Source of the DNA: a virus
DNA: 64,000 bases
Virus record (IMG/VR): IMGVR_UViG_3300033512_000452
Span: 1 to 64,000 of that record
Direction: 5' to 3' (one strand)
Part shown: positions 1,902 to 48,980 of the stretch, in pieces
Position numbering within the stretch: position 1 is the first letter of the stretch
How the letters are laid out: each line of letters opens with the position of its first letter
The notes under the pieces: model-generated
Seen by the model: only the letters and a program-made list of their open reading frames with translations
The model's database searches: none
What the model was told of the DNA's origin: nothing
Position numbers and translations under genes: made by a program

Positions 1902-1942
1902 AAAAAAAAGACCCTATCCTGTATTTCTACAAGATAGAGTCT
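1902..1942 (-). terminator. rho-independent terminator ending the small-ORF operon
   Basis: Stem GACCCTATC (1910-1918) pairs with GATAGAGTC (1933-1941) with one mismatch. A8 on plus gives U8 after the hairpin on minus. Lies just after the stop at 1955. Confidence 0.75.
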
Positions 1943-1954
1943 TTCGGTATTAGG

Positions 1955-2230
1955 TTAGAAACGACAACAATCCTCAACAACAGCGTCTAAGTCCAGGGAC
2001 TTGACACCCAAATTACCACATACCGCCTTGGCTTTGGCCGATAAGTAAGAGGGATCCATGTAAATAGCAATCGCTTTCCGCATGGCGTTGTAGTGAGCGC
2101 GATCCAATGCGTCGGCGAACGTGAGATCACATTCACCGTGGACCGCGGTCCATTGGTTCAGTTCGTCCACCGCGGTTGCGATGTCGAAATACTCCTCGTA
2201 GAGGGATTCAAGTGATTTGTCTGTTACCAT
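1955..2230 (-). CDS. small hypothetical protein (paralog of 2676-2858)
   Basis: ORF track entry; RBS AAUAAGGAG upstream. SLESLYEEYFDIATAVDELNQWTAVHG aligns with SETLYKEHFNISAAMDQLEQWTTVYG in 2676-2858. Confidence 0.7.
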   Translation of the reverse strand: MVTDKSLESLYEEYFDIATAVDELNQWTAVHGECDLTFADALDRAHYNAMRKAIAIYMDPSYLSAKAKAVCGNLGVKSLDLDAVVEDCCRF

Positions 2231-2281
2231 TGTATTGCTCCTTATTGGCGGTCTAACCTCCTACCGCCAGGGCTTTGGGAT
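2231..2281 (-). promoter_or_regulatory. inter-ORF hairpin element B1 (SD-like loop AGGAGGUUAG)
   Basis: Stem GGCGGT (2247-2252) pairs with ACCGCC (2263-2268). Flanks are conserved with B2: CTTATTG...CTAACCNCCT...AGGGCTT. Confidence 0.6.
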
Positions 2282-2479
2282 TTAGAAGCCGTTTGCTTCC
2301 TGTTCTATGTCGAGATACTCTATGTCGTAGGCGTATGATTCCGCCTTGTATTCTGCGTAGCCTGGGTTTGCTAACGCAAAGGCTTTTTCCTGTTCCGCAT
2401 CCACGTCGACTTCCATGTCTACTGTTGCGTCGTACACAAAGCGAATGCGGTCTTCCTCGCCGTAGTTCTCGTAGTACAT
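2282..2479 (-). CDS. small, very acidic hypothetical protein
   Basis: ORF track entry, 65 aa, rich in D/E (MYYENYGEEDRIRFVYDATVDMEVDVDAEQE...). Confidence 0.6.
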   Translation of the reverse strand: MYYENYGEEDRIRFVYDATVDMEVDVDAEQEKAFALANPGYAEYKAESYAYDIEYLDIEQEANGF

Positions 2480-2500
2480 TTGGGTTTCAATGAAGCTGTA

Positions 2501-2578
2501 CTACGCTTCGTCGATGCCGTCAAAGGACTTGATTACGGACACTTCGCCGGTCGGATGCACATAGATTATTGTGAACAT
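2501..2578 (-). CDS. possible 25-aa micro-ORF
   Basis: ATG at 2578 preceded by AAUAAGGAGAAUC. Translation MFTIIYVHPTGEVSVIKSFDGIDEA. The longer track ORF 2501-2761 would read through repeat R1. Confidence 0.35.
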   Translation of the reverse strand: MFTIIYVHPTGEVSVIKSFDGIDEA

Positions 2579-2596: not shown

Positions 2597-2679
2597 GATT
2601 AGTTGATTGCCGATAGTTCCCTGCCGTGGATTCGGACCACGCCAGCACCCGTCTGTGTGCAGGGAAGTTAGTTGATTAG
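2597..2679 (-). ncRNA. tRNA-like structured repeat R1 (acceptor-like stem + small hairpin + T-arm-like hairpin)
   Basis: Minus-strand RNA: UCCCUGC / ACAC-AGACGG-GUGC / CGUGG-UCCGAAU-CCACG / GCAGGGA. Homologous to R2 and R3. Confidence 0.65.
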
Positions 2680-2858
2680 AAAGAGGGATTCCAGGTAGTG
2701 ATCGACTCCCGTTCAGCGATGCGGTGAGCCAGTTCCACGACATCGGAGTACGTGTAGTCACCGCCGTAGACTGTGGTCCACTGCTCCAGCTGGTCCATTG
2801 CAGCGGAGATATTGAAGTGTTCTTTGTAGAGGGTTTCTGATGAGTATTTGATTTCCAT
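2676..2858 (-). CDS. small hypothetical protein (paralog of 1955-2230)
   Basis: ORF track entry; RBS AAUAAGGAAAC upstream; paralogy as noted for 1955-2230. Confidence 0.7.
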   Translation of the reverse strand: MEIKYSSETLYKEHFNISAAMDQLEQWTTVYGGDYTYSDVVELAHRIAERESITTWNPSF

Positions 2859-2908
2859 GATAGTTTCCTTATTGACAGTCTAACCGCCTACTGACAGGGC
2901 TTATTTGA
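2859..2908 (-). promoter_or_regulatory. inter-ORF hairpin element B2
   Basis: Stem GACAGT (2874-2879) pairs with ACTGAC (2890-2895), 5 of 6 pairs. Loop is AGGCGGUUAG on the RNA. Flanks conserved with B1. Confidence 0.5.
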
Positions 2909-3073
2909 TTAGAAATCGAGTTTTAGTCCGGTGTCGGCGTGCTGAACGACAATTCGAGTTTCTGTGTAAAGAACCACGTTCCAATCGTAGTTGTCGATCA
3001 GGTCGTCGAGGTAGGCGTATTCGCCAAGCAATTCAAGAGACGCATCGTTGCGGACGTAATACATGTTGTACAT
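2909..3073 (-). CDS. small hypothetical protein (54 aa)
   Basis: Start moved to the ATG at 3073 (MYNMYYVRND...), after RBS AAUAAGGAAGGUG. The track start at 3145 lies inside repeat R2. Confidence 0.6.
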   Translation of the reverse strand: MYNMYYVRNDASLELLGEYAYLDDLIDNYDWNVVLYTETRIVVQHADTGLKLDF

Positions 3074-3095
3074 TTCACCTTCCTTATTCAAATGA

Positions 3096-3174
3096 GTGTT
3101 TGATTGTCGGTAGTTCCCTGTCATGGAGTCGAACCATGCTAGCACCCGCCCGTGCCAGGGAAGTTAGTTGTTAG
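3096..3174 (-). ncRNA. tRNA-like structured repeat R2
   Basis: Minus-strand RNA: UCCCUG / GCAC-GGGCGG-GUGC / CAUGG-UUCGACU-CCAUG / CAGGGA. The T-stem covaries with R1 and R3. Confidence 0.65.
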
Positions 3175-3401
3175 TACGCCCGGATCCGCTTGAGATCCTC
3201 GGCTAGTAGCGCCTCTACTCGCTCGAGGTCCGGCGTTTCGTCCAGGAAGCTCTCGGAGCAAACCTTCACGAATCCACCTGGATACTCTACGGTCACTACT
3301 GCGTCCTTGCCGTAGTATTGGAGGTCCCAAGACATGAGACCGTTGAACGGCACTGTGATTGGATCACCGCCGACGGAATACACTAAGTTGTAGTTGAACA
3401 T
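3171..3401 (-). CDS. small hypothetical protein (76 aa)
   Basis: ORF track entry; RBS AAUAAGGAGAGUC upstream of the ATG at 3401. Confidence 0.7.
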   Translation of the reverse strand: MFNYNLVYSVGGDPITVPFNGLMSWDLQYYGKDAVVTVEYPGGFVKVCSESFLDETPDLERVEALLAEDLKRIRAY

Positions 3402-3420
3402 GACTCTCCTTATTGACCTG

Positions 3421-3502
3421 AATGTTTGATTGCCGATAGTCCCCTGCTGCGGAGTCGAACCGCAAGAGCACCCGTCTGTGCACAGGGGAGTTAGTTGATT
3501 AG
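3421..3502 (-). ncRNA. tRNA-like structured repeat R3
   Basis: Minus-strand RNA: CCCCUGU / GCAC-AGACGG-GUGC / UGCGG-UUCGACU-CCGCA / GCAGGGG. This gives a 7-bp acceptor-like stem and a canonical T-loop. Confidence 0.7.
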
Positions 3503-3909
3503 GACCCGTCTACTGCGCTGTCCTGGAGCCATTCCACCATGCACGCATCCAATGGCTCTTGCCACGACTCAGTGCATACAGCATCCCAGATGTCGTCCCA
3601 GGGATTGTCCTCAGTGTTCACTTCCACTGCTGGAGTAACTTCCTTCACCGGAGCGCCCTTCCCGTCCGCTTTGAGCACCACACGCAAGCGAGCCTTTGCT
3701 TCCACACGGCGTGCTGTTTCCTGAGCCTGCGCCAGCGTGACGCCGTGGATCACGATAGACTTGCGGCCTACGGTCCCCGTGGCGGTCTGGGGAATGACAC
3801 CAAGAGACTTCAATTCCGCCACATACGCTACCATCTGGCAGGTGAAGAACGAACGAGTGCCTTTCACAGGAATGAGCACATAGGATCCGACGTTATTATT
3901 TGTTGTCAC
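3499..3909 (-). CDS. hypothetical protein (136 aa), first gene of the small-ORF operon
   Basis: GTG start at 3909 with AAGGAGGAAUAUACC upstream; ORF track entry. Confidence 0.7.
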   Translation of the reverse strand: MTTNNNVGSYVLIPVKGTRSFFTCQMVAYVAELKSLGVIPQTATGTVGRKSIVIHGVTLAQAQETARRVEAKARLRVVLKADGKGAPVKEVTPAVEVNTEDNPWDDIWDAVCTESWQEPLDACMVEWLQDSAVDGS

Positions 3910-3949: not shown

Positions 3950-4060
3950 AAATACCCCTCCCTTCACAAGTCACCCCCCGATAGGGATCAACAAACAACG
4001 CTCAAGTTCCCGCCCACCAGCTAGCCACGGATTTGCTTACGGCGCCACTCGTCCAGACAC
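3950..4060 (-). repeat. conserved leader repeat, copy B (homologous to 405-510)
   Basis: Same conserved blocks as copy A. Lies 5' of the operon that starts at 3909. Confidence 0.7.
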
Positions 4061-4389: not shown

Positions 4390-5190
4390 TTGACTGTTAC
4401 TTTACTGGCTTACGGGGATGCGCACAGCGGATCATCGGTAGGGTTGTGTCCCCCGAATATCAAAGAAGATGATGGGCAAAAAATTAAATACTCGATTTCA
4501 CAGAGATGGATCTGGGATAACTGGCTCCGAATGATCGAGAAAGCAAAGTCATTTAACAATGACCTCATATCGTTATCGAATGGTGACTCCCTGGAAGGAA
4601 ACACCAACAACAAATCGTATCAGGTCGTTACGTCAAATCCGGTGACTTTGATCAAGATTGGCGTGGAAAGCCATGGTCTTGTTCGAAGGATATCCAAGCG
4701 GATGTATATGACTCGCGGGACCGGCTTTCATTCCGGGAAGAGCGGGAATCTAGAAGAGCTCCTCGCAACATCCCTGGCGTGTGAAAAGACGGACGAGGGG
4801 ATGTTCTCTGCTTATCAGTGGAATTTGATGGTGGAGGGGGTTACGATTGAAGCCACCCACCACACAACGATGAGTGGAATCCCATGGATGAAAGAAGAAG
4901 CGGCGGATAAGTTGGCGGCAAAGATTATGTTTGCGAATGCAAAAGCAGGAGAAACCCCGCCTGATATCGTAATTCGCAGCCACGTCCACCGTTGGAGTGA
5001 TTCGTATGATAAGTACAAGACCAGGGTGATCATCCTTCCCTGTTGGTGTTTACCTACTGAGCATATCCATAAAGTGGCGCCAAGTTCAATCGCTGAAATT
5101 GGCGCTGTTTTTATTCACATTGACGGAAAGAAATTCGAGGTAGAGAAATTTAAAGTAATCCCAAAGAGGAAGATATGGCGAAAGATATAA
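4390..5190 (+). CDS. calcineurin-like metallophosphoesterase
   Basis: TTG start after AAGGAGGT. Motifs seen: GDAHSG (DxH), NGDSLEG (GD), RGTGFH, and RSHVHRW (GHxH-like). Confidence 0.75.
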   Translation: MTVTLLAYGDAHSGSSVGLCPPNIKEDDGQKIKYSISQRWIWDNWLRMIEKAKSFNNDLISLSNGDSLEGNTNNKSYQVVTSNPVTLIKIGVESHGLVRRISKRMYMTRGTGFHSGKSGNLEELLATSLACEKTDEGMFSAYQWNLMVEGVTIEATHHTTMSGIPWMKEEAADKLAAKIMFANAKAGETPPDIVIRSHVHRWSDSYDKYKTRVIILPCWCLPTEHIHKVAPSSIAEIGAVFIHIDGKKFEVEKFKVIPKRKIWRKI

Positions 5191-7534: not shown

Positions 7535-7538
7535 GTAA

Positions 7539-7610
7539 GCCAGGCTAGTTTAGTTGGGAAAACAACAGTCCTGTAAATTGTGGTCGCCGGTTCGAGTCCG
7601 GCGCTTGGCT
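7539..7610 (+). tRNA. tRNA, anticodon TGT (Thr) with unusual C at position 33
   Basis: Manual fold. Acceptor GCCAGGC/GCTTGGC (one G-U pair); D-arm GTTT-AGTTGGGA-AAAC; anticodon arm ACAGT-CCTGTAA-ATTGT; T-arm GCCGG-TTCGAGT-CCGGC; discriminator T. No encoded CCA. Confidence 0.65.
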
Positions 7611-7627
7611 TTTAAAAAGAGGGAAAT

Positions 7628-9683: not shown

Positions 9684-9887
9684 ATGGTCTATACATATAC
9701 GACCCGCAAAGAAGTAACTGATGTTTACGACCACGTAATATCTGATCTGGCTAATCGCGCAGAAGGGAATATTTGCTCCAGGATGGTTGGGGTTAATAAA
9801 CTATGGGACGCGTATGAAGCAGCTCTGGATATCGCCGTGTGGTTGCGTAAAACAATCCTAGAGGGGGATCATGGGAATTCTGAATGA
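9684..9887 (+). CDS. hypothetical protein (small terminase role not demonstrable)
   Basis: ORF track entry, immediately upstream of and overlapping terL. Confidence 0.55.
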   Translation: MVYTYTTRKEVTDVYDHVISDLANRAEGNICSRMVGVNKLWDAYEAALDIAVWLRKTILEGDHGNSE

Positions 9888-11406
9888 AGCAGACATGTCT
9901 ATTCTACCTATGATTAATAAGGGAAGATTAGATATTGCGACCTCTTGGTATCTTCAGGGATTTGAACCGCTTTGGTATCAGTTCGCCTGGCATTACGCTC
10001 CTCAAAAAGCGACCTCATTCATCGCCGGAATCGCGGCAGGGAAAACAGCAACCTCAGCGGCGTCAGTGCTGATGCAGTGTTTAGCTATCCCTTATTACCG
10101 CGCCCTCCACACGAGCGTTACAGCAAAACAAGCAGAGTTGGCGTTTGATATGGCAAATGGCTGGATTGAAGATAATCCAAGACTTGTTCATTTGATTAAA
10201 AATATCTCTCTTCGCCCTTACCCTGTTATAGAGTTTCAGAATTATGCGCAGTGGGATTTTCGTACAGCTGGAATTGACGCCAGGTACATCAGGGGGTCCG
10301 AATACGATCGGATCGTTATGGATGAAGCGGGGCTTGACCCTCACGGAGAAGTGATTAAAGTCCTCCGTGGTCGTTTGCGTGGAACTCGTCCATACTCCCC
10401 CACCGGATCCGCCAGAGTCCCGAGGGAAGCGCGGTTGGATGTTATTACGTCCCCAACAGATGCTCCATGGCTGAGTGAGCGGTTTTACAAGGGATGGAAA
10501 GATAATTCCCAAGCCGAATTAGATAAATACTTCTCTATTAGAGCAACGACTTACGACAACACCTACCTTCTACCAGAACAAATCGCCATGATGGAATCTG
10601 AATTAACAGAGGAAGACGTGGCTGTTGAAATGATGGGGGAATTCCCTGATTACGGCATGTCTTTCTTTCCGAAACGTCACTTGGATGCTATCACAGATAC
10701 TGGCAGATACCTTTACGACGAGGTTTATAATGCTGTCAATCCCGAGTCTGGCGCGTCAAAACCAAACTACGATATCACAGAACACCCGCGACATGGGATC
10801 ACTCGTTACGAAAAACCATTCGACCCGAACGCCTATTACATTATGGCTGGCGATCCTGGGCAAGATGATCCACCAAAACGTAATGCTGGTGTGATTTTTG
10901 TGGCCGACATAGCCAAAAAACCATTTGAGATCGTATTCTTCCATTGGGTTTCCGGGCACGGCAAGTACGACCCTTTCCTCACGTCTTATAAATATGCCAT
11001 TGAGAAATATAACCCGAAGTACCGCGGGATTGACTCCACTGCCGGACAAAAAGGTATCCAAGAGCTTGCTTTTGAAAGAAATGACATCGAGACGGACGGA
11101 ATTAGTTTTGGTGGAAAGAAAGACGCCATGCTTAACAGTCTGTCTTTGCTTGTCTCGAATCAAGAAATTGTTTGGCCGCCAATTAAAGGCTTAATAAAAC
11201 AGATGTCTGTGTACACCAAACAAGACGACAGTAAACTAGCTCAAGATATCGTTATGACACTGGCTATGCTTGCATCATTTTGCAGGTATTCTCCAGTAGC
11301 TAACTTCAACAAAGAGCGAGAAGAAATATCTTTTGCTATAGCCCAGAGAATCAGCAGGCGCAATAGGACGTCAAGATTGTCATCGAATAGGAGATTTAAA
11401 CGTTGA
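9871..11406 (+). CDS. terL: terminase large subunit
   Basis: Walker A AGIAAGKT, Walker B RIVMDEAG, C-terminal acidic nuclease-like motifs (GDPGQDD, IDSTAGQKG). Size and position fit. Confidence 0.85.
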   Translation: MGILNEADMSILPMINKGRLDIATSWYLQGFEPLWYQFAWHYAPQKATSFIAGIAAGKTATSAASVLMQCLAIPYYRALHTSVTAKQAELAFDMANGWIEDNPRLVHLIKNISLRPYPVIEFQNYAQWDFRTAGIDARYIRGSEYDRIVMDEAGLDPHGEVIKVLRGRLRGTRPYSPTGSARVPREARLDVITSPTDAPWLSERFYKGWKDNSQAELDKYFSIRATTYDNTYLLPEQIAMMESELTEEDVAVEMMGEFPDYGMSFFPKRHLDAITDTGRYLYDEVYNAVNPESGASKPNYDITEHPRHGITRYEKPFDPNAYYIMAGDPGQDDPPKRNAGVIFVADIAKKPFEIVFFHWVSGHGKYDPFLTSYKYAIEKYNPKYRGIDSTAGQKGIQELAFERNDIETDGISFGGKKDAMLNSLSLLVSNQEIVWPPIKGLIKQMSVYTKQDDSKLAQDIVMTLAMLASFCRYSPVANFNKEREEISFAIAQRISRRNRTSRLSSNRRFKR

Positions 11407-12110: not shown

Positions 12111-12175
12111 ACACAGTGTAACAACGTTAAAACAAAAGTAACATTTCATTGACATTTTCAGGAAATTATGTTAGT

Positions 12176-12504: not shown

Positions 12505-14052
12505 ATGGACACTTTTAACTGGACAACACCTTCGATTAACGAACTCCCTGATTGGGCGTCTGATATCAGCCAGGTTAGCGCAGAGATGCGCAATGCTTGG
12601 TTAGCTGAAACGGCAGCCCGCACTCGGTATAACAAGTATTTTACCGGCAAGGTCTTCGAAGAGAAGGTGAATTCAAATGACCCAGAAAACGACACGCTAC
12701 TTTATCCGGTCGGGATGAATTTAGCTAAGATGATCTGTATCACCCTGGCCGATTCGATGTTTGGCGAATGGACGGAAGATATCGTAACTTTTGAGCCCAA
12801 CCAGGACCTTGAAGACATTAACACTGATGATAAAAAAGCATCAAAGTTACTGCAAAACATTATTCGATACAGCAATATCAATTCAAAGTTATGGGAAATT
12901 GAATTAGAAAGAAATATCTACGGTGGCGGGGTGCTCCAGGTATCTCCGTCATTTACAACGCCGGGACATGTCATCTGGTCGCGTGTTGATACTGGATCTT
13001 TCTTCCCCATCTGGTCCCCTGATGATCAAGACGATCTCCTTGAGGTTTACGTTGTCATCCCGATGACACGAGACCAAGCAAGATTGAAGTGGCACATCGA
13101 AACAGACAAAGATGTCATTTATCGCATTGAACACTGGACAAAGGATATCTACGAGAATCACATTAACGGAATTCGCGTTGAGGCCTACTCTGGCGTAAAT
13201 CCGTGGAGAGTTGTTCCTTTTGTTTATATTCCTCGCTTTCGCGTGCATAAATGGTGGGGTGAGAGTGCAATTGATGACGTAATCGCCACTCAAGACGAAC
13301 TCAACATGAGATTAGCTGATGTTGGTGAAGCAGTAAACTACAATACCCACCCGGTTCGCTGGGGTGTGAATCTCCCAAAATCATTCAAGCCAGAAAACTT
13401 CCCGGTCGGTCCGAACGTTTTCTGGGATCTTGGACGCGTTATTGGCGACAGTCCAAAACCTGAATTAGGAATTTTGGAAGCGAAGAACCCCACCCCACAA
13501 GGGACTTTCGATTACATCGAATTCCTCTACAACTGGTCTAGGGTGAGTGCTTTCACTCCTGCTGTTTCTTTAGGGGATGATGATGGCGGCGGACAGAGAT
13601 CTGGAATTACTCTTGAGATTCGAATGGCTCCACTAATTCGGTCTATCCGTCGAAGCCGGTCTTATCTCTCTACTGGGCTGATGAAAGCCGCTCGAATTAC
13701 GGCGGCGATTTTAGAGCAGAAAGAGTTTTCGGATACTCCGAAGCGCGCTTTGCAATCAATTATTGATGGCCGTTTAGTTCCAAAATTCGCAAACATTCTG
13801 CCACGCGATCAGGCTGCGTTAGTTGATGAAGTTACAAAGCGATTCTCCACAACACCCCCGTCGATCAGTCTGGAGACGGCAGTTAATAAGTTGGGTGATG
13901 GGACAAATGAAGTGAATAGGATTGTTGCCATGGTCGGCAATGACAAACTGTACAGAAAGGTCGAACCCGTTTCCGACGCCGGAAATCCCCCTGGTTTAGA
14001 TGGTAAGAATGGTCCGACTATTAATCAAAAAACTGATGAAGGAGAAAAGTAG
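12505..14052 (+). CDS. portal protein (by position and size)
   Basis: 515 aa, the first large ORF after terL. No diagnostic motif recognised by eye. Confidence 0.65.
   Translation: MDTFNWTTPSINELPDWASDISQVSAEMRNAWLAETAARTRYNKYFTGKVFEEKVNSNDPENDTLLYPVGMNLAKMICITLADSMFGEWTEDIVTFEPNQDLEDINTDDKKASKLLQNIIRYSNINSKLWEIELERNIYGGGVLQVSPSFTTPGHVIWSRVDTGSFFPIWSPDDQDDLLEVYVVIPMTRDQARLKWHIETDKDVIYRIEHWTKDIYENHINGIRVEAYSGVNPWRVVPFVYIPRFRVHKWWGESAIDDVIATQDELNMRLADVGEAVNYNTHPVRWGVNLPKSFKPENFPVGPNVFWDLGRVIGDSPKPELGILEAKNPTPQGTFDYIEFLYNWSRVSAFTPAVSLGDDDGGGQRSGITLEIRMAPLIRSIRRSRSYLSTGLMKAARITAAILEQKEFSDTPKRALQSIIDGRLVPKFANILPRDQAALVDEVTKRFSTTPPSISLETAVNKLGDGTNEVNRIVAMVGNDKLYRKVEPVSDAGNPPGLDGKNGPTINQKTDEGEK
13970..13985. 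repeat. one-mismatch palindrome variant TTTCCGACGCCGGAAA
   Basis: Inside the portal ORF, read as SDAGN. Identical to the variant at 45431. Confidence 0.85.
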
Positions 14053-23176: not shown

Positions 23177-26100
23177 ATGAGTAAAGCAACAAGGGCTATT
23201 TTAAGAAGATACGAAGAACGCAAAAACCTTGCCGGATTACGTCCGAACGCTAAAGGGTACGAAATGCCAAACATCGAAAGCGACGATGACTTTGAGCAAT
23301 ACAACCTAGAGCAACGAGCGAAAGAGTTTTGGTCTAGTCTTCACCCTGAGTTATCTTCTCCTATCCCTTTAACAAATCCAGCGGCTGGATATGAAGATAT
23401 TCGAACCTTATACGCAAACCTTCCGCCAGCGCAGCCTACAACAAGAATGTCAACCAAAGAGGATTGGAATGCAAGTCTTTTATCCAGCGCCAGCAGAGAT
23501 CTTGATGAATACGAGGTTATGTCTGGTTTTAGCCAACCTAAGAGAAAACCTCAAACTCCTACGCCGTTAGGTTTGCCTACATCTAGATCCTTTAGGTCTA
23601 TGATGGCATCGACGATAGCCAAAGAGATAACAATTCAACCTACTGAGTCTGAAAATGCCTTAATTTACGCAAGAGAAAATCCGACAGTTAACACGTTAAT
23701 GCGGGCTTACGATCCATCTCTAGCAAGAAATACAGTTAATCTTGGTCAATATGATTCAAGAAGCAATGAAACTATCTTCGAAATGAGCAACAGGCAACGA
23801 GCGCGAGAAACGAAAGGCGGATCATCTTTCGTAATTAACACGCTTGGTGTTGCATTTAACCGGCAGGTACATTCATCTCTTAAGAATCAACTTGGATTCG
23901 TTCCATTAATGGAAAATCTTACTCTTGCGCAAGAAAAAGATATCATGCTGATTCCAGGATACTCGCCGGAAGTTGACGAAATCAGGAATTCCGACTCCTT
24001 TAAGCAAGCTATGTTAGAAAGAGGGGGATCAGAGAGAGAAGCTCTCCTTGAAGCTATCGGCGGGTTGAATGTTCCTTTTGTGAAATTATCCCCAGACGCT
24101 AAACCTACCAGATATCAACGCGGAGGGAAAGATAACAACAAATTCCTTCCTACTGAAACTGGCGGGTATGTGTTTGATTCCAGCACAGATAGATTTGTTC
24201 CATATAATCCTAAGAACGCGTACTCATTAAGCGACGATATGCTTGAGAAGATCAAGGGCGTGCTTGGTGGAACACACGTTGATTTTATGCGCAAAGAACA
24301 GCGCGACGCTATGACAGGAATTGTTCGCGACACAAGAAACGCCGCGCCTGAAGTTGATTTCTCAACAATTGCTATTGAATACTTCCAGGGAATGCTTCAA
24401 TATGCCGTTGGTAATGTTGATAAAAGAATTGAGATTGAAACAAAAAAGGCTGGTGGAGCCTTGCATAACCCGGATGGCTTAAGGGACAATATTAAAACTC
24501 AGATTGCAAGGATGTTTTCTGCTTCTACTGAAATTTATAATTTCTTTAACGCCCAATATGCCCACGGTGTAGACCCCGACGCGAATAAAGAACCGGATCA
24601 CGAATCTGCTAAAAGATCCCTTAGTGACTTCAATAACGCATATGCTCTTGCTGCATATCCAAAAATGAAAGACACTAGCTTCTTGTCTTTTTCTGATATC
24701 TCTACGTTTTTTAATTTAGGAAAGACAGTCCCTTCCGTCAATGAAAATGGTAATGTATTTCTAAAAAATAAAAGAAAAAAAATAGAGATAAAAAACGAGT
24801 TAGTAGAGGTCAACAACTTCCCGAGAAATCTTCAAGTAACTCAAACAGTATCGAGGTCAATGTTGTCTTTCGGGACACTTACTGGCGCACACTTGGAGCT
24901 TGACGGGCGAGATTCAATAGAGACGATGCAGGCCGCTGATGCTGATGTCTTTGAAAGTTTGATCGCATTTAAGGGTGGGTACAAACAAGATAATTTGTTC
25001 GCGTATCTATTCGGTAAAGTTATATTCAATACATTTAAAAAGACAGATCAAAAGCAAAGTCAAGCGCTCGCACAGTATACCCTCGCTAATAGTAATCCTC
25101 AATTCGGGGAGAGAGTTGCTCTTCAAAACTCTGCCGTAACCGATTACGACAAAAGAAGATATCAAATCGGAAGTTTTATGAAAAGACTGGGCGTGCAGAG
25201 CATTCCAGTTCCAGGCTTCTTTTCGAAAAACGGAGAGCTAAATGATGGTCAAGGCTTAATTAACCTTGATGATATTCGCGTTACAGACCCCAAAAAGGTT
25301 AAAGAGTATTGGCGTCAAAAACTTATTAACCAAGAGAACGCCAGACACGAATCAAGTATGGCGGCTTATAAATCTGCGTATACAACTGAAACCAACTTTA
25401 ACGCAGAAGAAAGAATATCCAAACTTAGAGAGCAACAAGAAATTGTAGATCAATATGCTTTTCGCAGAATCGATATAGACGATGTTTTTGAAACTTACGC
25501 GGATTTTGACCGTCGGATAAAGGAAACAAAAAACTTACCAATGCCGATAGGTAATCGGGTAAATAATCTCTCTGTGCTTTCAGAGATCCACGCAAAAAAC
25601 ATATCAGAAATCGATAAATTTAAAGCCGCTAATGCCGCTAAAAAATTTGGTTATTTTTATGATTACAAAAGAGTCCCAGAAGGTTACGCCCCTTTAGTTC
25701 TCAATAGTGACGATTCTGGGATTGTCCGAGATATGGTATTGCCAAATCCAGGACTAAAACAAGGGGACTACCCTGCATCAATCAAGAAAATGATGAATGC
25801 CATCGTAATGATGTACTCTGCTGAAGGCATTGGGGTAATGGGAGAGACAAAACAAGAAGCAGATATGTCTGAATTGGGTGATGCTCTTGATCGCAGTGAG
25901 ATGGTTGTGTTTGGCGGTCGCTTGATTAATAGAGTTTCCATGGACAAAGAGTTCCCTGGTGGTGCATCGGAGTTGTGGGGCGTTAATTCAAATGAAACAG
26001 AAGAGGATTCTGATTTCGCTAATACAGCGCCTGGGTACAGCAAGGATGGGACATCGGAATTTAATACAGCATTGTCTCGTGAGAGAAGTGCGTTAATTCT

Positions 26101-29100
26101 TATGGCTAAAGATGCCGCAAAACGTCTTGGTAAATCAGTGAAAATAACAAAAGATACAACCATTGAGAAATTACGAGAGATTGTTTACAGCGAATCTAAT
26201 TGGATGAAGACGATGGTCGACGACGCGATAACAAATGGCGGAAAAGGTGGTTTTAATCCATACAATTTTGATCCTAGTTATAAAACAGCCAGCATAGCGA
26301 TAAGTAAAGCGACAAGATTAAACACTAGCACTATGGAACGCGTTGGCGATGGATGGAAGGTTCCGGCGCAACCAATTAATGCTTTATTGGCCGCTGTTGA
26401 CAATGCGTTCTCGAGATTTACTAGAAATAGTCCGGTTTCCGGCGCCGGAAATAATCCCTTGACTGTTCCAGAAAAACAAGGTCCAGTAAAAGCTAATGTA
26501 CCTTACACGTTGAAAGGTCAGACTGGCGAGAGATTACCTACACCTGATGAACTCAATGAATTAGGCGTTGATTTAGAGGAGTACAAAAAAATAATGAATA
26601 AAAAAGGCGGATCCGGTGCTTATATACATCTTGAGGCGAGGATAGGTGAATCTCTTAATAATCAGAGCGATCGAATGGAATCTATTCGATATGGTTTAAG
26701 TAAAATTGGCGTACCAATAGGTCGCAAAAAAGCAGAGGCTCCAGAAAATCGCCCAGCACTTCCTGCTGGAAACTTTGCCAGTAACGTGTGGGGAAGATTT
26801 AGAGCAGAGGCTCCAGAGAAATATGGACCAGAGAGCGAGGTTTTGGCTCCCTACTTCAGCGAGATGAATGGTATTTCAAGAAAAGAGTTAGATAATCGTG
26901 CAATGACGGCATCTAAGATTATTCAAGATCGCCGGTCTGGACTTGAAAATCCGATAACTTCTTACGGTAATATCTTGGATGATTATCTTGACAATTATTA
27001 CGGTCGAGGGATAGAAAACAAAGAGGCTTTTGAGACTTGGGTTAGTGATCGTGGAAGTTCAGATCCTGTTGAGTTTGGTAAATTTATGTCTCAAGTCTTT
27101 GTGCCCCTTATTGGACAGCATACGTATATCAAACAAAGCAACCGCGGGGAATACGATCATGCCGGAACTGTTTACAATGAATTAAGTCGTATCATCCCCA
27201 AAGCGTCAGAGATGCTCCCGAAGATGTCAGAGGTACTCGCTGCAGGGGAGCCCAACGATGTTGTTGGCGATCAAACGAATGTCTCAAGTACCTTGAATGA
27301 CGTTCTTTACCCTCGATATTCAGATAAAATTAATGGAATTTTATCAAGGGTAAACGATTCTATATCATCTGGGCGCAACTTCCTTTTGGGCAGCCCTCCA
27401 GGATCGCAGAAGACTTCTGCCATTTATCAGGCTGTAAGTGCACGCCCGGGGTTGGGGATTATTACTACGCCGTTGAGCAGCTTGAGTCGTGGGCACGAAT
27501 CAAGATTTAGAAAAGGCTTGGCCGAAAACGGTATTTACGACGTCCCTAGCACTTTCTTTTTAGGTGGGCATCCCGGGGAATTTGATCCTGACAGAATGGA
27601 CCAGGCAGAGTACGACAAAGACGTTGCTGAGTACAATAATTCGCATTACGAATTCCTAAGAGCCGTAATGGAGAAATCAGGCGTGGATGCGGTCTTTCGC
27701 GGTGTTGACGAGTCTGGCGAGTATACGACACGAAAATACTCTATTGATGAAGCAAGAGGGCCTAATTTTAGGAATTTCATTGGACGAGGAACTCATCCAT
27801 GGAGCGCTTTTGTCGATTTATATGGAACGCCGAAATTCAAAAGAAGTGTCATTAATGAGAATACGTCGGAAGACAATCGTGTTGTTGCGATTATGTCGCC
27901 GGAAAAGCTCTCTCATCTACAGGGAGAGAATGGCGAAAATCCAAGTAAACTTGGCAGGATAATAAACTATTTAAAGAATGAAGACCAGATTGGAGCAATT
28001 GCGATTGATGAGGTCCAGAAGGGATTTACAGACGCAAACGTTTCCAGGCCTGATTTACTTGATCAAATCAGAGTTGCGAGAGATGAATATCCTCGCGTTC
28101 CAGTGATGATGGCAGGTGGTTCGTTGGATCCTGATGATGTTGACATGATCAAAGATTTCTTCTCCGAGCAAGGGATTGATTCCCATTACGAAAGAACGAA
28201 CATGAGTAAATATATTGACCCTGATGTTATTCTTGCAAAAAGAGATCAGTGGGGGAAGATTGCAGCCGAAAGAATGAATCAAGATCCAAATTTGCTTACA
28301 TACGTTGATTCAACATCAAGGGCAAACGAGATTTACGGTATTGTTTCAGCAGGTGGTCAAGACGCTCATATCCAGCACAAAGGAACTGGTGACAAAAGAT
28401 TTCCTGGCGCGGTTTCAAGGGAAATGAACGAGGATGTCTCTAGGCATATCTCAGACAGAACCAACATGCCGAGAACAGTCGCAACCGGCGCAATGGGGGA
28501 AGGTATTGATATGCCTTGGGTTAAAAACACCCAACTTATTGGTATCCCGAATAATACTGACGAAATAATGCAAAGAGCTATGCGAGCACGCGAATCGAAT
28601 ATGGGCCCAGGAGAACGTTCTACTGTAACAATGATCACAGACCTCGATGAAATCCAAAAACGAGCAAATGGAATCAAGGAAACGGCAGCGAGTGTTACTC
28701 CAAATTCGATTCTTGCCGCTTTCAGAAGAGTTCAGGGTTTCTTGACCAATGGTGACGCTTCTCCGAATTGGAAGATAAGCGGAAAGCAAATAGAAGACGT
28801 AATCGGTGATACGCTTTATGCTTCGACAAATAATCACACGTCTCGTCTTCACGCTGGAATGGTTAAAGGAATCATGGCAACATCTGGTCTTCTCGCTATG
28901 GATGGCGATGATGGGTTTAATTACACAATTCACAATGATGTCTCTGAATTGAGTGACGACGATATCAAAAAGAAATTAAACGATGGCGTATACAAAGACC
29001 CAGAGACACTCGTTGATAACCCATTAACTATGCAGGAGTATGTCAATAAGTCAGCGAACTACAGAAAAACATTAATGATGAGTGCTTATCATAGTATCCG

Positions 29101-32100
29101 CCACCAACATATTCGCCAAAGTTTAGCAAAAATTACAGCAGAGGCGCCAGACAATAAGCCAAACTTTATGGTTCCTGGCCAAGAAAACCTATTCTTGAAA
29201 ATTAAAACAGAAAACGGAATGGAATATCAGAAAGCAACTGGCGGTAGTGGCCCTGATTTTTCAGAGATCAGCGAGTTAGATATTGTCACAGCTCAACAAC
29301 GCGGAGAGATTGTTGGTACGATCCATGATCATATTTCTGCTCATGGTCGATCTGGTTTTTCGAGTTCTGATAAAGAATTATCCGCTCTTGGGAGCGTTGA
29401 AGTTGTCGAGTCAACAGGTTTGAAGAGATTTGAAGCTAACGCTAAAGGAGACAATTTCGTCAGCGATAGTTCTCCTAGTTTTGACCTCAAAGCAATAGAA
29501 AGTGCATTTGCCAAAGTTGTTAAATCCTTGAATAACTTTGGTGGGCGCATGGAAGAAATAAACGAAGCCATGGCTGATGGTACATCTAGCCTTAGCAAAA
29601 ACATGGTTGCGTTTAATTCTGTGATAAAAGATTTAACACCAGACGAAAGATCTGGCGTGTCAAATATCGCAAAACAACAGCAAGGGCTTTATTCGGCGGC
29701 GGGAAATGATCTCCTGGCTGGTTTCGTTGCCCAAAAATTAGATCCTTTATATCAACCACGCTCTAATTCCCAATCATTTGACTTCTATCAACCTTCTACC
29801 GGAAAAACATTTGATCCCATTCAAGCAGCGAGAGCTGCGCAAGCGGAGCAAAGAAGTGCTTTAGTTGAATCTAGTAGGAAGGACTTCTTCGCCAGAAGTG
29901 GTGTTTCCTCAAACGAAATCGCCAAAAGATATGGTGTTAGTAAAGAAACGCTCGTAGGCAGAATGAGGCAGGACGCTTTTCGTGGTTTTTCTGATACAGA
30001 TGGTTCCCCGAGAGGCGTTGGAGAAAGAGCCAAAATTGACGGAGTTTCAGTATCTGAGCAGATTGGAAATATCCTTATTGAGAGAGAAGAAGGCAGAAAG
30101 AAAACACTGTCAATCTATGGGAGTGATATATCTCGCGGCACAGTCAATAAAGCTCTCGCAAAAAGAGGTATGCTTTTTGATGAAGCAAGTATCGGCGATG
30201 TAAATGACATTATTTCCGAAAGCGAAGCTCAAAATGCGACATCCGTTGAACGCAAAAGATCTATTCGCAGATTTGAGATATCTACTGGCGGACAATCTTC
30301 TAAGGCGCTTACTCATTTCTCTGGTGGAATGACAGATACTGAAATATCAGAAATGCCTGAGCAGGAGTATCAACAGTTAACCGAAAGAGTTACGGAAACA
30401 ATAGAGTCAGTCAGGGGTCGCGTTGAAGGAATTAAGCAACTTGGCAACATGGCCGGAAAAGTCCTCAAACAGGCAGCCGATATCCAAGGAAGAGATTTAT
30501 TATCTAGAGATGAAGACACATTAGTTACGCGCGGAAAACAAGGATTATCTCCTGTAAGTGATGACGAGTTATCCGGGATGATAGGGAGAGCCAATTCTTG
30601 GGAGGATATGTTCTCGGGTCTTGCTGGCGGTAGGTACGGAAGAAAGCTAGGCATATTTAGAGGGAAGCAAATTAATGAACGTAAAGCCAACCGCTCATTA
30701 AGTGAACTGATTGGGTCAGATGAGATCGATGAAGATATCTTTTCAATGGATCCTGATGAGTTAGTTGATCGTCCTGGTATGTTTGGTGGATTAAAAGACA
30801 GACTTCGCGGAAGGCAAACGAGAAAGGATCACGTTGCTGAACAGATTCACGAACAACAGGATATCCAGGATAATCAATCTGTTTTCAAACGACCAATGAT
30901 CCAAGCAGCATTCGCTGGATACATTGTCGGTAACGCCTTTTCTCAAATAGCTGGCAGCTCTCTTCAAAATGCTTATCAATATACAGCGCAGAATCCATAT
31001 ATGCAATCTTCTGGGTTCTCACCGTTCTCAGGGACTGGTTCTGGGTTTGCTTTACGCCAAAAAGTAAACGAAGAGGAGTTGGGCAAGAGTTTCCAGGAAT
31101 CTCACGGTATATCTATGAGCTTGGGGTATATGAATCTTGGATTCGGGAAAGCTTTACAGAGCGCTCAATACGGAGTTGGGATCATGGCCGCAGGCGTATC
31201 TGCGGCGGAGTCTGTTTCAAGTATTGCATTTCAGCAGTCCATGATGGGCACAACCCCTAAAGCAATGAAGGCGTTAGGTAAAGCTGCTGGGATTGGTGGG
31301 GCAATTGCCGCTACAGTCGGTACACTTACTTCAGTTTTTGATGTCGCAAACGAGCCATTAGCTGATTATATTTTTGACAAAGAGAAACTTGGCGAAAGAA
31401 GCTACACAATTGGAACAGGACCAGATTCCTTCATTGCTAATAACGCGTTATTGGATACGTTGTCAAAAGAAACAAAACTTGATTTTTGGGATGATCCTAT
31501 AACGCGAATCGGTACGAATATCAATTCTTTTATCCCTGGTATGGGTACCGCTGTATTTGAAGCCAACAAACAATACGCAAATTCATTAGGATTATCTAAC
31601 GAAGAAATCCTCAAAGCGATGCCTAAGAGAGTCGCTGACGTATTAGCTCCGCTTGTTGAGTCGGAAGAACACAAAAAAGCGTCTGATTTAAACGATCGGG
31701 CTATTGAAAATCTCCAGAGAGCAGGTCTTGGCGTTACTAGAGAGCAGGCTTCGCCAATAACCGACGGCGCTATGGACGTTTTTGGTAACAACGCCTCTGT
31801 CACCTACTCTGAAATAATGGGTGACTACTATGAGCAATATGGAATCAAAGCAAGCGTAACCGATTCTATGTTAAAAAACACAGCGACCGCAAGTGGTTAC
31901 AGAAGAGACAGCAGGGAGATGTATGACTTGTTGGCGGATTTCTCTTCTGCTGGTTCAGAGAGTGGAGCTTATAACACCTTCGAGAGAAAGAGTCAGACGT
32001 TTTCTGCGACAGCTAATACGACTGGATTAATTTCTGCTTTAAATCCAGGAATCGACACGAGTGTTGATAGGGCACGTGTGCATGATTGGTATGAATCGTC

Positions 32101-34049: not shown

Positions 34050-34505
34050 ATGAACAGTTATATTTCGCTTGATCACGGAGCTGGTTATATAGGAATGGAA
34101 GATGATAGTATTGTTTCTTTAGAAGATGAAACAATGCTTGTTTCGCAGGATTATTCTCTTGGCTTTTTTTCAACGCCAATGAAAAATTGGGATCCAATAA
34201 TTGTGCGCCCTGCGTCAGTTAAATACACACTCAATGGAGAAGCCTATTCTGTGTATGGGTATGGAAGCAATAAGGAATGGGATGGCTTTATTATTGCTGG
34301 TGTAGCTGAAACAGACGAGCTTTCAAGTGTGGACACTTTACGCGAATTACTTTCCGTTAATGATAATATTCGTTTTACTGACCATTACGGAAACGAGTAT
34401 ACCGTTGTTTCTATTGGGCCATTTCAAGAAAAGCATCTACTGTCTGATTGGGAAAATAAAAATAATCGCGTCTTTATCAAAACAAGACTTGTTGAGGTTA
34501 AATAA
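34050..34505 (+). CDS. distal tail protein candidate
   Basis: ATG at 34050 after GAGGT. 151 aa directly after the tape-measure-position ORF. Confidence 0.5.
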   Translation: MNSYISLDHGAGYIGMEDDSIVSLEDETMLVSQDYSLGFFSTPMKNWDPIIVRPASVKYTLNGEAYSVYGYGSNKEWDGFIIAGVAETDELSSVDTLRELLSVNDNIRFTDHYGNEYTVVSIGPFQEKHLLSDWENKNNRVFIKTRLVEVK

Positions 34506-47381: not shown

Positions 47382-47481
47382 AGATCTCCTTGAAAATGTA
47401 ATAAAAATTGCCAGTAACAATCACCTTATTTATTGTATCACGTTAGTTACTTTTTAACGAACAGGCGAATCTTAAAACTTT

Positions 47482-47755
47482 TGAGTGTGATTTGAGTGTG
47501 AATTGGTATAAAACGTATGCGAAACGTGTGTTTTGTAGACGATTAAGCACAAGATATTGTGCTGTAACACGTTTGGGACACCATATATGGGGTACTAACG
47601 AATTTCCGTTAGACTGTGGATCAAGTGGTTGCGGGTTCGATCCCCGTCATCCACCCCAAATATGGGGGTATAATTGAAGAAAGTGACCTGTATATAGGAT
47701 TTTGGGGTAAAATAGAAAGGATGTTCTACGGTTTGAGTGTGAATTGAGTGTGAAT
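47482..47755 (+). other. candidate attP: arm-type 11-mer repeats flanking a tRNA-His 3' half
   Basis: TGAGTGTGATT and TGAGTGTGAAT at 47482-47503; TGAGTGTGAAT twice at 47734-47755, in the same orientation. The tRNA-like core lies between them. ATATGGGG(G)TA direct repeats at 47585 and 47660. Confidence 0.6.
47609..47658 (+). other. 3' half of a tRNA-His-like sequence (anticodon arm to CCA); not a complete tRNA
   Basis: TTAGA-CTGTGGA-TCAAG (anticodon GTG, G37); variable TGGTT; T-arm GCGGG-TTCGATC-CCCGT; acceptor 3' strand CATCCAC; discriminator C; encoded CCA. No matching 5' acceptor strand or D-arm upstream. Confidence 0.65.
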
Positions 47756-47799
47756 TGAAAAAACACCTTTCAAACTTCCCCCGCTTTCTTAAATGCCAT

Positions 47800-48903: not shown

Positions 48904-48935
48904 TTGTTTTATTCCTCCTTGTTAATGTTTTATTT

Positions 48936-48980
48936 AAAAAGGCGCGGCGGGACTCGAACCCGCCTGCTGCCATCTCGCCT
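48936..48980 (-). terminator. tRNA-like minihelix (acceptor-like stem + T-arm) followed by a U-run
   Basis: Minus-strand RNA: AGGCGAG-AUGGCAGCAG-GCGGG-UUCGAGU-CCCGC-CGCGCCU-UUUUU. Confidence 0.55.

Follow-up and report, generated by a model that had tools for sequence, protein, structure and literature searches.

Three similar, structured repeats of about 80 nt, R1, R2 and R3, separate small genes of an operon in the virus record IMGVR_UViG_3300033512_000452, of which positions 1 to 64,000 were analysed (hereafter the window), and the question raised by this locus is what kind of element the repeats represent and what they may do in the operon transcript. Gene content identifies the window as the genome of a tailed phage. 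We found that R1-R3 are tRNA-like, without being decoding tRNAs, that their fold is kept by compensatory changes, and that elements of the same design recur in other phages, mostly between cistrons and always on the coding strand. We tentatively propose that they are tRNA-derived mini-tRNAs which RNase P and RNase Z would excise, splitting the mRNA in the process, a reading whose likelihood we place somewhat short of even.

Copies of the repeat and their borders

The positions and the minus-strand orientation given in a preliminary description of the locus were confirmed both by repeat-family analysis and by an R1-R3 covariance model, which scored 93-99 bits on the three copies and 12.7 bits on the next best site in the window, so that R1, R2 and R3 are its sole copies, all of them on the coding (minus) strand. 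They are 78-81% identical to each other over 74 nt, with a mean column identity of 90% over the 69-nt core, and fill three of the five intercistronic spacers of an operon which runs on the minus strand from 3909 to 1955 and comprises six small genes with a strong terminator at the end, in the order g1, R3, g2, R2, g3, S1, g4, R1, g5, S2, g6 (Table 1). As had been described, every unit opens at the stop codon of the upstream gene (UAA of g4 at 2678-2676, of g2 at 3173-3171 and of g1 at 3501-3499) and closes ahead of the next ribosome-binding site (RBS), which is of the AAUAAGGAG type, with AAUAAGGAA as its version in R2. The structured cores are 8-9 nt away from the stop codon on one side and 38-40 nt from the following start codon on the other, and in R1 and R3 the similarity runs on for about 33 nt into the downstream gene. 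The exact 10-mer AAUCAACUAA noted earlier on both sides of R1 is indeed there (2668-2677 and 2599-2608). Of AATCAACTAA the window holds exactly three copies, two that flank R1 and a third upstream of R3. A scan of the R units for promoter-like hexamers on the coding strand found none.

The other two spacers are occupied by the shorter elements S1 and S2, which are located upstream of the paralogous genes g4 and g6 and have the ends of the R units in common (UAAUCAA..CCCUG and CAAUAAGGA). Their hairpin loops are Shine-Dalgarno-like (AGGAGGUUAG and AGGCGGUUAG), with no significance of the fold, and S1 gave a weak match (19.8 bits, E = 1.6) to the Rfam DUF2815 RNA.

Fold and covariation in the window

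Minimum free energy (MFE) folding of single sequences and RNAalifold analysis of the units, extended to about 120 nt, independently yielded one three-helix fold, in which an acceptor-like stem of 7-8 bp is combined with a stub hairpin of 3-4 bp and a 5-bp T-stem that carries a 7-nt tRNA-type loop, while the flanks and the RBS are unpaired. The acceptor stem, earlier put at 6-7 bp, has 8 contiguous pairs in R1 and R3, and 7 pairs plus a bulged A in R2. The small hairpin GCAC-RGRCGG-GUGC, which had been proposed for all three copies, is formed in R2 and R3, but in R1 it is reduced to three pairs (ACAC...GUGC, with an A.C mismatch). Only 17-18 nt separate the 5′ strand of the acceptor from the T-stem. 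R2 and R3 carry the T-arm motif GGTTCRANYCC unchanged, R1 deviates from it at one position (GGTCCGAATCC), and the equivalents of G53-C61 and U54/A58 are retained; the T-loop reads UUCGACU in R2 and R3, in agreement with the preliminary description, and UCCGAAU in R1, i.e. with a C at the position of U55.

The T-stems of R1, R2 and R3 (CGUGG/CCACG, CAUGG/CCAUG and UGCGG/CCGCA, respectively) differ as had been listed. Altogether, four pairs have changed on both sides among the three copies and still pair, three of them in the T-stem and one in the acceptor, and 97.9% of the alignment cells are paired, as opposed to 33-60% in controls with the 3′ partners shifted by 1-3 columns. The z-scores of single-sequence folding are modest (-1.4 to -2.8); the evidence for structure in R1-R3 is the covariation, not the folding energy.

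Related elements in other phages

Strict element patterns were used to scan IMG/VR, GTDB genomes and JGI metagenomes. There were no matches in IMG/VR, and the 13 matches in GTDB turned out to be real tRNA-Arg genes, tRNA 3′ fragments or chance occurrences, none of which fits the covariance model, while the one sequence obtained from the JGI scan, L021, is a 1.8-kb piece of this very phage (100% identity), ending inside R3. A Python scan of 1.07 Mb for a T-arm with a nearby 7/7 acceptor likewise returned only the three R elements, L021 and one archaeal case. No element was found, with two covariance models and a structural scan, in 61 IMG/VR loci and one ENA contig carrying a related large terminase, TerL (834-855 kb); having the element is thus not a trait of this group of phages as a lineage.

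Two looser patterns, in which nothing but the T-loop and the stub's 3′ strand was fixed, were combined with removal of ARAGORN tRNAs, a structural filter and the covariance models. Among the IMG/VR matches listed, which makes the number of relatives a lower bound, we found L187, L161, L169 (with a copy in L221) and L144, as well as the related forms L195 and L200/L213. The L187 element (30.6 bits with the R1-R3 model, E = 6e-7) is composed of AGCAUGA, GCAC-AUAGG-GUGC, AUU, AGGGG-UUCGACU-CCCCU and UCAUGCU, and that of L161 (27.7 bits) of UGCAACG, GCAC-AAACGG-GUGC, GA, GAGGG-UUCGACU-CCCUC and CGUUGCA; L169 scores 23.1 bits and is accompanied by a second element, L169b, with a different stub. L144, which retains a remnant of the D-loop, is an intermediate form, L200 and L213 have two tiny arms, and L195 carries two elements. 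The MFE folds of the relatives, taken alone, reproduce the architecture of the R elements, and L161, L187 and L169 have exactly 7 contiguous acceptor pairs, the 7-bp acceptor being contiguous with the T-stem.

Covariation across phages was assessed on an alignment of R1-R3, L187, L161, L169 and L144, guided by the model since MAFFT misplaced the T-stems of the homologs. It is thus fitted to the model, a known bias which should be kept in mind in reading the proportion of paired cells, 98.1%, against 36-59% in the slid controls and with none of 500 shuffles reaching the observed level. Double changes affect 10 of the 17 pairs (7 of 8 in the acceptor and 3 of 5 in the T-stem), so that the compensatory changes that further homologs had been expected to show are indeed present in other phage contigs. 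The acceptor and T stems are wholly different across phages, yet remain paired; the patterns by which the homologs were chosen fix the stub 3′ strand and the T-loop, and the acceptors were part of no pattern. At least seven acceptors with 7/7 Watson-Crick pairs at the right place were seen in the screened set, where about 0.6 would be expected by chance. The three inner stub pairs (CAC/GUG) are invariant in the alignment, and covariation neither supports nor contradicts them; the stubs of L169b and L195 are different.

The covariance model of the proposed new family, whose definition further includes the lack of CCA and a coding-strand position between ORFs, shares its label, R2, with one of the elements; it comprises a 7-bp acceptor, 0-1 nt, a 3-5 bp stub, 1-5 nt, a canonical T-arm and the acceptor 3′ strand, and had no matches in 855 kb of unselected related phage DNA. 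Overall, the family, found via biased patterns, includes at least about ten lineages. Simpler minihelices, consisting of an acceptor and a T-arm with a 6-17 nt joiner and no clear stub, were observed in other viral contigs (Table 1), several of them directly past stop codons or before an RBS, and some may be chance matches if G-U pairs are permitted.

The covariation also bears on the possibility that the repeats matter at the DNA level, as recombination sites, as footprints of small mobile elements (cassettes, integron-like elements or elements resembling miniature inverted-repeat transposable elements) or as leftovers of duplication, with the fold being incidental. Closely similar repeats between dissimilar small open reading frames (ORFs) are indeed reminiscent of cassette arrays, R1 is flanked by the perfect 10-nt direct repeat, L021 ends in R3, as assemblies do at repeats, and the G+C content of the island (51%) exceeds that of its surroundings (about 43%). 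However, compensatory changes which preserve three helices in the window and across phages require selection on a folded single strand, and the T-loop consensus is confined to one strand, which is the coding strand in every case. Moreover, there are no further copies in the window, the direct repeat is perfect at R1 only and does not adjoin the inverted repeat, no RYYYAAC/GTTRRRY ends of the integron attC type could be fitted without mismatch by inspection, and the sole integrase is 48 kb away, next to a tRNA-His-type attP of its own. We consider a DNA-level role improbable, and the earlier suggestion that the repeats are mobile cassette boundaries does not hold up well.

Relationship to tRNAs and other RNA classes

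The preliminary description had stated that the elements are not tRNAs and had left room for a match to a known repeat family. They have no anticodon arm, and ARAGORN called no tRNA on R1-R3, its sole call in the window being the tRNA-Thr gene in Table 1, and gave nothing but noise with relaxed settings. Rfam searches with R1-R3 (2 kb; 76 nt) returned nothing at gathering score, nor at E <= 10, i.e. Rfam 15 has no family matching the R elements, and the statement that these are not tRNAs stands.

Other tRNA-related classes were compared one at a time. The tRNA-like domain of tmRNA does not fit, in that there is no tmRNA call, pair 3-70 is C-G and not G3:U70, and no tag ORF is present. For Y RNA (YrlA), there was neither an Rfam match nor a Ro60/TROVE match among the proteins scanned, which were a subset of the ORFs. 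A tRNA 3′ fragment or att relic is at odds with the 5′ acceptor strand of the R elements, which is present, pairs 7/7 and covaries. No U-run follows R1-R3, and a terminator scan lists no intrinsic terminator there. In contrast, the elements do have the structural hallmarks by which t-elements are defined (definition taken from PMC1920247), namely a non-canonical tRNA-like fold and a T-arm motif, in an mRNA and adjoining a coding region.

Among the real tRNAs matching the looser pattern are five phage tRNA-Ser genes, in which GCAC-NNNACGG-GUGC is the variable arm located directly before the T-arm. The stub and T-arm of the R elements match the variable arm and T-arm of phage tRNA-Ser(GCU), as in L114 (GCAC-CUACGG-GUGC), and a class II tRNA from which positions 8-44, i.e. 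the D and anticodon arms, are removed has the exact layout of R, L161 and L187. The family is therefore regarded as tRNA-derived and class II tRNA-Ser-like, an assignment which is partly circular, in that the pattern chose the comparison set. A tRNA-Arg origin, which would take two deletions, was set aside in favor of the tRNA-Ser-like one, which takes one deletion and in which the stub is a real hairpin, with both ideas resting in part on pattern-selected matches. Elements of another type, in L096, L097 and L107, keep the D arm, lack the anticodon arm, are located in phage tRNA arrays and score 48 bits with the Rfam tRNA model. A RAGATH-18 RNA is found near the L096-type element (L096 7111-7183).

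Since truncated tRNAs such as those of the L096 type do occur in phage tRNA clusters, and the R elements resemble internally deleted tRNAs, they might be viewed as decaying, functionless tRNA pseudogenes that are still there only because they are recent. This appears highly improbable: all stem substitutions but one are compensated, at least four other phage lineages have kept the architecture with stems that are fully diverged, and the R cores are 78-90% identical while the genes that follow them, g2, g3 and g5, have no detectable similarity beyond the first codons.

Placement and 3′ context

Every element examined is co-oriented with the flanking genes. Those in L187, L169 (first element, L169a), L195 (both), L232, L173 (second element, L173b) and L229 are located 3-9 nt past the stop codon of a same-strand ORF, with the next same-strand start 1-45 nt downstream. 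In L169b the upstream stop codon lies within the 5′ strand of the acceptor, and in L185 the nearest upstream stop is 155 nt off and a start codon follows 14 nt past the element. The layout of L195 (ORF, element, 58-aa ORF, element, ORF) repeats the design seen in the window, and L169 has two elements in one operon, four genes apart. The element of L144 is an exception: it belongs to the leader of a gene for a small membrane protein and is preceded by a terminator and a region of promoter-like repeats.

None of the elements examined encodes CCA. In R1-R3 the acceptor is followed by C-UAU/UAC (in the 7-bp register, UUCCCUG/CAGGGAA), and in L187, L169, L144 and L200/L213 by C-UAA; the tRNA-Arg of L213 is likewise CCA-less. 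The phage's own tRNA-Thr(UGU) is CCA-less as well, showing that processing of CCA-less tRNAs is used in this system. In Bacillus subtilis, CCA-less precursors natively have UAA where CCA would otherwise stand; they are cut past the discriminator by RNase Z and processed by RNase P in vivo, while an encoded CCA blocks RNase Z (PMC1874595). Since CCA is not encoded in the elements, and would block RNase Z if it were, cutting by RNase P on the 5′ side and by RNase Z on the 3′ side would be most likely. An apparently conserved U(-1) across the family was dropped from consideration once all members were tabulated.

A common leader lacking a Shine-Dalgarno sequence, AAACCC(A)AUACAU(C/U)AUG, was noticed downstream of mini-tRNAs in L187 (about 4600-4632, minus strand) and in L200 (about 12715-12745 and 12130-12147, minus strand), and suggests a conserved start region, independent of Shine-Dalgarno pairing, in the L187/L200 group of phages.

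Proposed processing model and alternatives

To be recognized by bacterial RNase P and RNase Z, as well as by the CCA-adding enzyme, TrmA and TruB, an RNA needs no more than a minihelix of acceptor and T-arm. The elements retain just this half of a tRNA, with fitting geometry, at places where cutting would part the cistrons. We infer that the R elements, being transcribed within the mRNA of the six-gene operon, would be cut by RNase P at the 5′ edge and by RNase Z at the 3′ edge, which would set free a tRNA-like RNA of about 50 nt and divide the polycistronic mRNA cistron by cistron, with an unstructured leader and a Shine-Dalgarno sequence at the head of each downstream part; the purpose would be either punctuation of the mRNA or the released RNA. 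Punctuation had already been suggested in the preliminary description, and the idea is strengthened, albeit indirectly, by the placement of the elements, by the contigs with two of them per operon and by the CCA-less 3′ context.

A number of observations weigh against excision. Position 1 is U or C, where G is usual; the -1 nucleotide varies across the family (C, U or A, according to element and register) instead of being consistently U; a bulged A interrupts R2 where the T-stem passes into the acceptor; U55 is replaced by C in R1; and there is no D-loop to build the elbow contacted by the S-domain of RNase P and by the arm of RNase Z, a part which the stub loop, with its conserved CGG, might conceivably take over. 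The S1 and S2 spacers, two out of five, are devoid of the element, and punctuation is not needed for every cistron, while the upstream mRNAs, once cut by RNase P, would have no protective structure at their 3′ ends. The element is also dispensable for this phage lineage, as it is lacking in the 62 related loci, and L161 is not tightly intercistronic, its element being located 84 nt past a stop codon and 77 nt ahead of a terminator.

The elements may instead stay in the mRNA, acting in cis between the cistrons as uncleaved insulators or stabilizers, which could block exonucleases, prevent the coding region from pairing with the next RBS, or serve as the binding site of a protein, from phage or host, by which translation of the downstream gene is tuned. 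They do form a compact stable module (-20 to -25 kcal/mol) with G-poor unpaired flanks and a free RBS, the other spacers hold the simpler hairpins S1 and S2, and the repeat takes in the RBS and about 8 initial codons of g2, g3 and g5, which suggests selection on the whole translation-initiation cassette. A generic stabilizer, however, has no need of a T-loop, a G53-C61 pair, 7+5 bp geometry and a CCA-less 3′ context, and these tRNA features are kept across unrelated phages while the stem sequences drift; in cells, moreover, such structures are substrates of abundant tRNA-processing enzymes unless they are protected. We regard retention in the mRNA as unlikely.

The placement of L161 hints that the released RNA matters, and not only the cut. 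The mini-tRNA, released or even unreleased, could act in trans by titrating, in the manner of a decoy or sponge, those host factors which bind tRNAs on the acceptor/T-arm/variable-arm side, such as tRNA defence nucleases cutting the variable arm, seryl-tRNA synthetase, modification enzymes or the CCA-adding enzyme, with three copies to supply the dosage. In its stub it resembles a class II variable arm, and it is the variable arm of tRNA-Tyr that is cleaved by Septu and retron-Eco7, which phage tRNA copies or amplified tRNA segments counteract (PMC13096335). A position between a stop codon and a terminator, as in L161, fits a small RNA gene or an RNA from the 3′ untranslated region; an accessory island of higher G+C with relative-less genes is typical of counter-defence loci; and an anti-restriction gene, ArdA, at another place in the window is proof of counter-defence functions in this phage. 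On the other hand, the acceptor sequences are wholly different between phages, so that a partner would have to read shape and not sequence, the discriminator is not the G73 of tRNA-Ser, and the tight spacing behind stop codons seen in most members is not required for a decoy. A product acting in trans, which we hold to be rather unlikely, would depend on the same excision by RNase P and RNase Z, and would thus extend the excision model rather than replace it. The most far-reaching version, in which the elements constitute an unannotated class of phage mini-tRNAs that free themselves via host RNase P and RNase Z to serve as decoys for tRNA-directed immunity or seryl-tRNA synthetase, with punctuation as their mode of delivery, is distinctly unlikely.

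The operon and its genome

In addition to the genes in Table 1, the phage genome carries those for a portal, a major head protein, a DnaB-type helicase and a primase. Near and distant DNA searches and a TerL protein search revealed no near relative among GenBank phages, while in a protein search the terminase was 43-58% identical to those of many uncultured phage contigs. A few of these are in bins labelled Anaerolineae or Chloroflexota.

The operon can be described as a six-gene accessory (moron-like) phage operon. Searches of Pfam and PHROGs with all six proteins found no relatives outside this phage, nor did a search of 5.8 billion proteins with g1 or an exhaustive search of 1.8 billion representatives with a g4/g6 profile, and the gene context therefore yields no functional clue. 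Within the operon, g4 and g6 are clear paralogs, and the g2, g3 and g5 proteins are alike in their first ~8 residues only. A TAG codon at 2501-2503 (minus strand) interrupts the otherwise open 98-codon frame of g5. Recoding of this stop codon throughout the genome was rejected as its source, because long genes elsewhere end at each of the three stop codons, and g5 may be a pseudogene, contain a readthrough site or represent two short ORFs.

Table 1. Coordinates of the repeats, genes and other features discussed in the text (positions refer to the window unless a contig is named)
Feature	Position	Strand	Remarks
R3 unit	3421..3502	-	g1 stop codon, CUAAUCAACUAACU, tRNA-like core, CUAUCGGCAAUCAAAC leader; 98.8 bits
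R3 core	3440..3489	-	acceptor UCCCCUG(U)/(G)CAGGGGA, stub GCAC-AGACGG-GUGC, T-arm UGCGG-UUCGACU-CCGCA
R2 unit	3096..3174	-	g2/g3 spacer; 92.7 bits
R2 core	3114..3162	-	acceptor UUCCCUG/CAGGGAA + 1-nt A bulge, stub GCAC-GGGCGG-GUGC, T-arm CAUGG-UUCGACU-CCAUG
R1 unit	2597..2679	-	g4/g5 spacer; 95.8 bits
R1 core	2617..2666	-	acceptor UUCCCUG(C)/(G)CAGGGAA, stub (A)CAC-AGACGG-GUG(C), T-arm CGUGG-UCCGAAU-CCACG
S1, short intergenic element	2866..2910	-	R-unit ends (UAAUCAAAUAA..CCCUG .. GUCAAUAAGGA); weak hairpin; no T-arm
S2, short intergenic element	2238..2283	-	hairpin UGGCGGU-AGGAGGUUAG-ACCGCCA
g1	3499..3909	-	136 aa; first gene of the operon; GTG start behind AGGAGG
g2	3171..3401	-	76 aa; R3 upstream; no family match
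g3	2909..3073	-	54 aa; R2 upstream; no family match
g4	2676..2858	-	60 aa; S1 upstream; paralog of g6 (z = 20)
g5	2282..2578	-	R1 upstream; in-frame TAG 2503-2501
g6	1955..2230	-	91 aa; S2 upstream; paralog of g4
Intrinsic-terminator-like hairpin	1906..1945	-	18 pairs + U-run; closes the operon past g6
tRNA-Thr(UGU), phage's own	7538..7611	+	no encoded CCA
Large terminase	9871-11406
Tyrosine integrase, phage-type	51386-52516
TTTCCGGCGCCGGAAA copies	493, 6660, 13970, 19892, 26436, 41802, 45431, 51315, 56957, 60534
L096 tRNA-like gene	L096 9529-9592	-	acceptor, D and T arms; stub CAC-CCGG-GUG replaces anticodon arm; missed by ARAGORN
Minihelices, L173	L173 8967-9010 and 4766-4808	-
Minihelix, L185	L185 2595-2635	+
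Minihelices, other contigs			L215, L226, L229, L232, L190

Several further features of the window were noted. The motif TTGATCCCT(A/G)TCGGGGG, followed by a G-rich Shine-Dalgarno-like stretch, is found on the minus strand before g1 (about 3975-3995) and at 418-437, where it precedes a gene running off the left end of the window, and could be a leader or promoter-proximal element that leftward transcripts have in common. In a long non-coding stretch to the left of the operon, positions 1046-1163 are taken up by tandem repeats of 18 nt (AGTGGATGAGAGATTGTG-like), which are degenerate. The 16-bp palindrome TTTCCGGCGCCGGAAA is present in 10 copies with up to two mismatches (0.02 expected), which are spread genome-wide, at least one being inside a 3597-aa ORF, and is possibly a protein-binding or regulatory site acting at the DNA level. 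The latter ORF (23177-33970, plus strand) and another of 1511 aa (34505-39040, plus strand) are the very large ORFs of the tail region. On the minus strand, positions 39782-41608 code for a 608-aa protein in which parts of an AAA_24/Sak4-like ATPase are split by LAGLIDADG homing-endonuclease domains, probably an intein-containing recombination or replication protein.

Two T-arm-like sequences in the window were tried as candidates for additional elements and rejected. The hairpin at 48947-48963, considered as a fourth element, proved to fold as an interrupted terminator, with a 6/7 "acceptor" of the kind that chance would produce. It is part of an intergenic interrupted hairpin on the minus strand (48930-48976) with the T-arm tip GCGGG-UUCGAGU-CCCGC, whose loop is the same as in the phage tRNA-Thr, and a U-run behind; this is probably a terminator, perhaps derived from the 3′ end of a tRNA. 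The T-arm at 47631-47647, considered as a minihelix, is instead part of the 3′ half of a tRNA-His (47613-47657, plus strand), with the anticodon loop CUGUGGA, a variable loop, the T-arm GCGGG-UUCGAUC-CCCGU, the acceptor strand CAUCCAC, C73 and an encoded CCA. It is flanked by 35-nt direct repeats at 47480-47514 and 47732-47766 (TTTGAGTGTGA(A)TTGAGTGTGAATTG) and looks like the core of the phage attP with arm-type sites, 3.7 kb from the integrase, which would imply integration into a CCA-encoding tRNA-His gene of the host.

Comparison with known systems

In mitochondria, decoding tRNAs are located between cistrons, and their excision by tRNA-processing enzymes separates the mRNAs. The R elements are similarly tRNA-shaped and intercistronic, on the coding strand, but having no anticodon arm they cannot decode, and they are found in three of five spacers only. 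In MALAT1 and MEN-beta transcripts, a tRNA-like module (mascRNA in the case of MALAT1) is cut by RNase P and RNase Z to give a small RNA of about 60 nt, to which CCA is added. It shares with the R elements the position of a tRNA-like module inside a longer transcript, but is eukaryotic and nuclear, retains an anticodon-like arm in its cloverleaf and is present in a single copy per transcript; the R elements are missed by the Rfam models.

Among phage systems, class II tRNA-Ser genes have the same stub and T-arm as the R elements (GCAC-NNNACGG-GUGC, 1-3 nt, NNNGG-UUCGAMU-CCNNN). Unlike tRNA-Ser, the R elements have no D arm or anticodon arm, of which the L096 type lacks only the latter, and carry a non-Ser acceptor and discriminator, and they are located in a protein-coding operon, whereas the truncated tRNAs of the L096 type are found in tRNA arrays. 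The promoter early stem-loop (PeSL) elements of T4-type phages consist of an early promoter and a simple stem-loop between unrelated small accessory ORFs. In both cases intergenic repeats part unrelated small ORFs, and a repeat that reaches the RBS and start codon could favor shuffling by recombination, but the R elements have no promoter-like hexamers on the coding strand and possess a tRNA-type three-helix fold.

The closest functional precedent is that of the t-elements of plant mitochondria, which were located by the T-arm motif, have ends coinciding with mapped mRNA ends, and were proposed, and in some cases shown, to direct cuts by RNase P and RNase Z with release of a small t-element RNA (Forner et al. 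2007, PMC1920247). Both kinds of element have a non-canonical tRNA-like fold with an acceptor and a GGTTCRANYCC T-arm, within mRNAs and by coding regions. In contrast to R, t-elements are organellar, have no sequence kinship with the R elements and are found singly at mRNA ends, not repeatedly in operon spacers, and their transcript ends are mapped, whereas those of the R elements are predicted; the latter are from a bacteriophage and have a stub resembling a variable arm.

Searches of the full-text collection consulted, which did find t-elements, mascRNA, viral 3′ tRNA-like structures, Y RNAs, tRNA fragments and anti-defence phage tRNAs, found neither anticodon-less tRNA-like elements between phage cistrons nor tRNA-style punctuation of phage or bacterial mRNAs. 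The elements are unannotated and are missed by tRNA finders and Rfam, and the covariance model presented here is a way to find them. If cut as predicted, they would represent tRNA-style punctuation of protein-coding operons in bacteriophages, by means of a compact, portable module of about 50 nt that hands an mRNA to RNase P and RNase Z; this would help in understanding differential expression and decay inside phage operons and might offer a tool, comparable to the tRNA-flanked guide RNA arrays already in use. If the released RNA is active, it would be a new player in the conflict between phages and hosts over tRNAs. Overall, tRNA-like modules for mRNA processing are already known, and what is new here is their proposed presence in bacteriophages and the defined architecture of the mini-tRNA.

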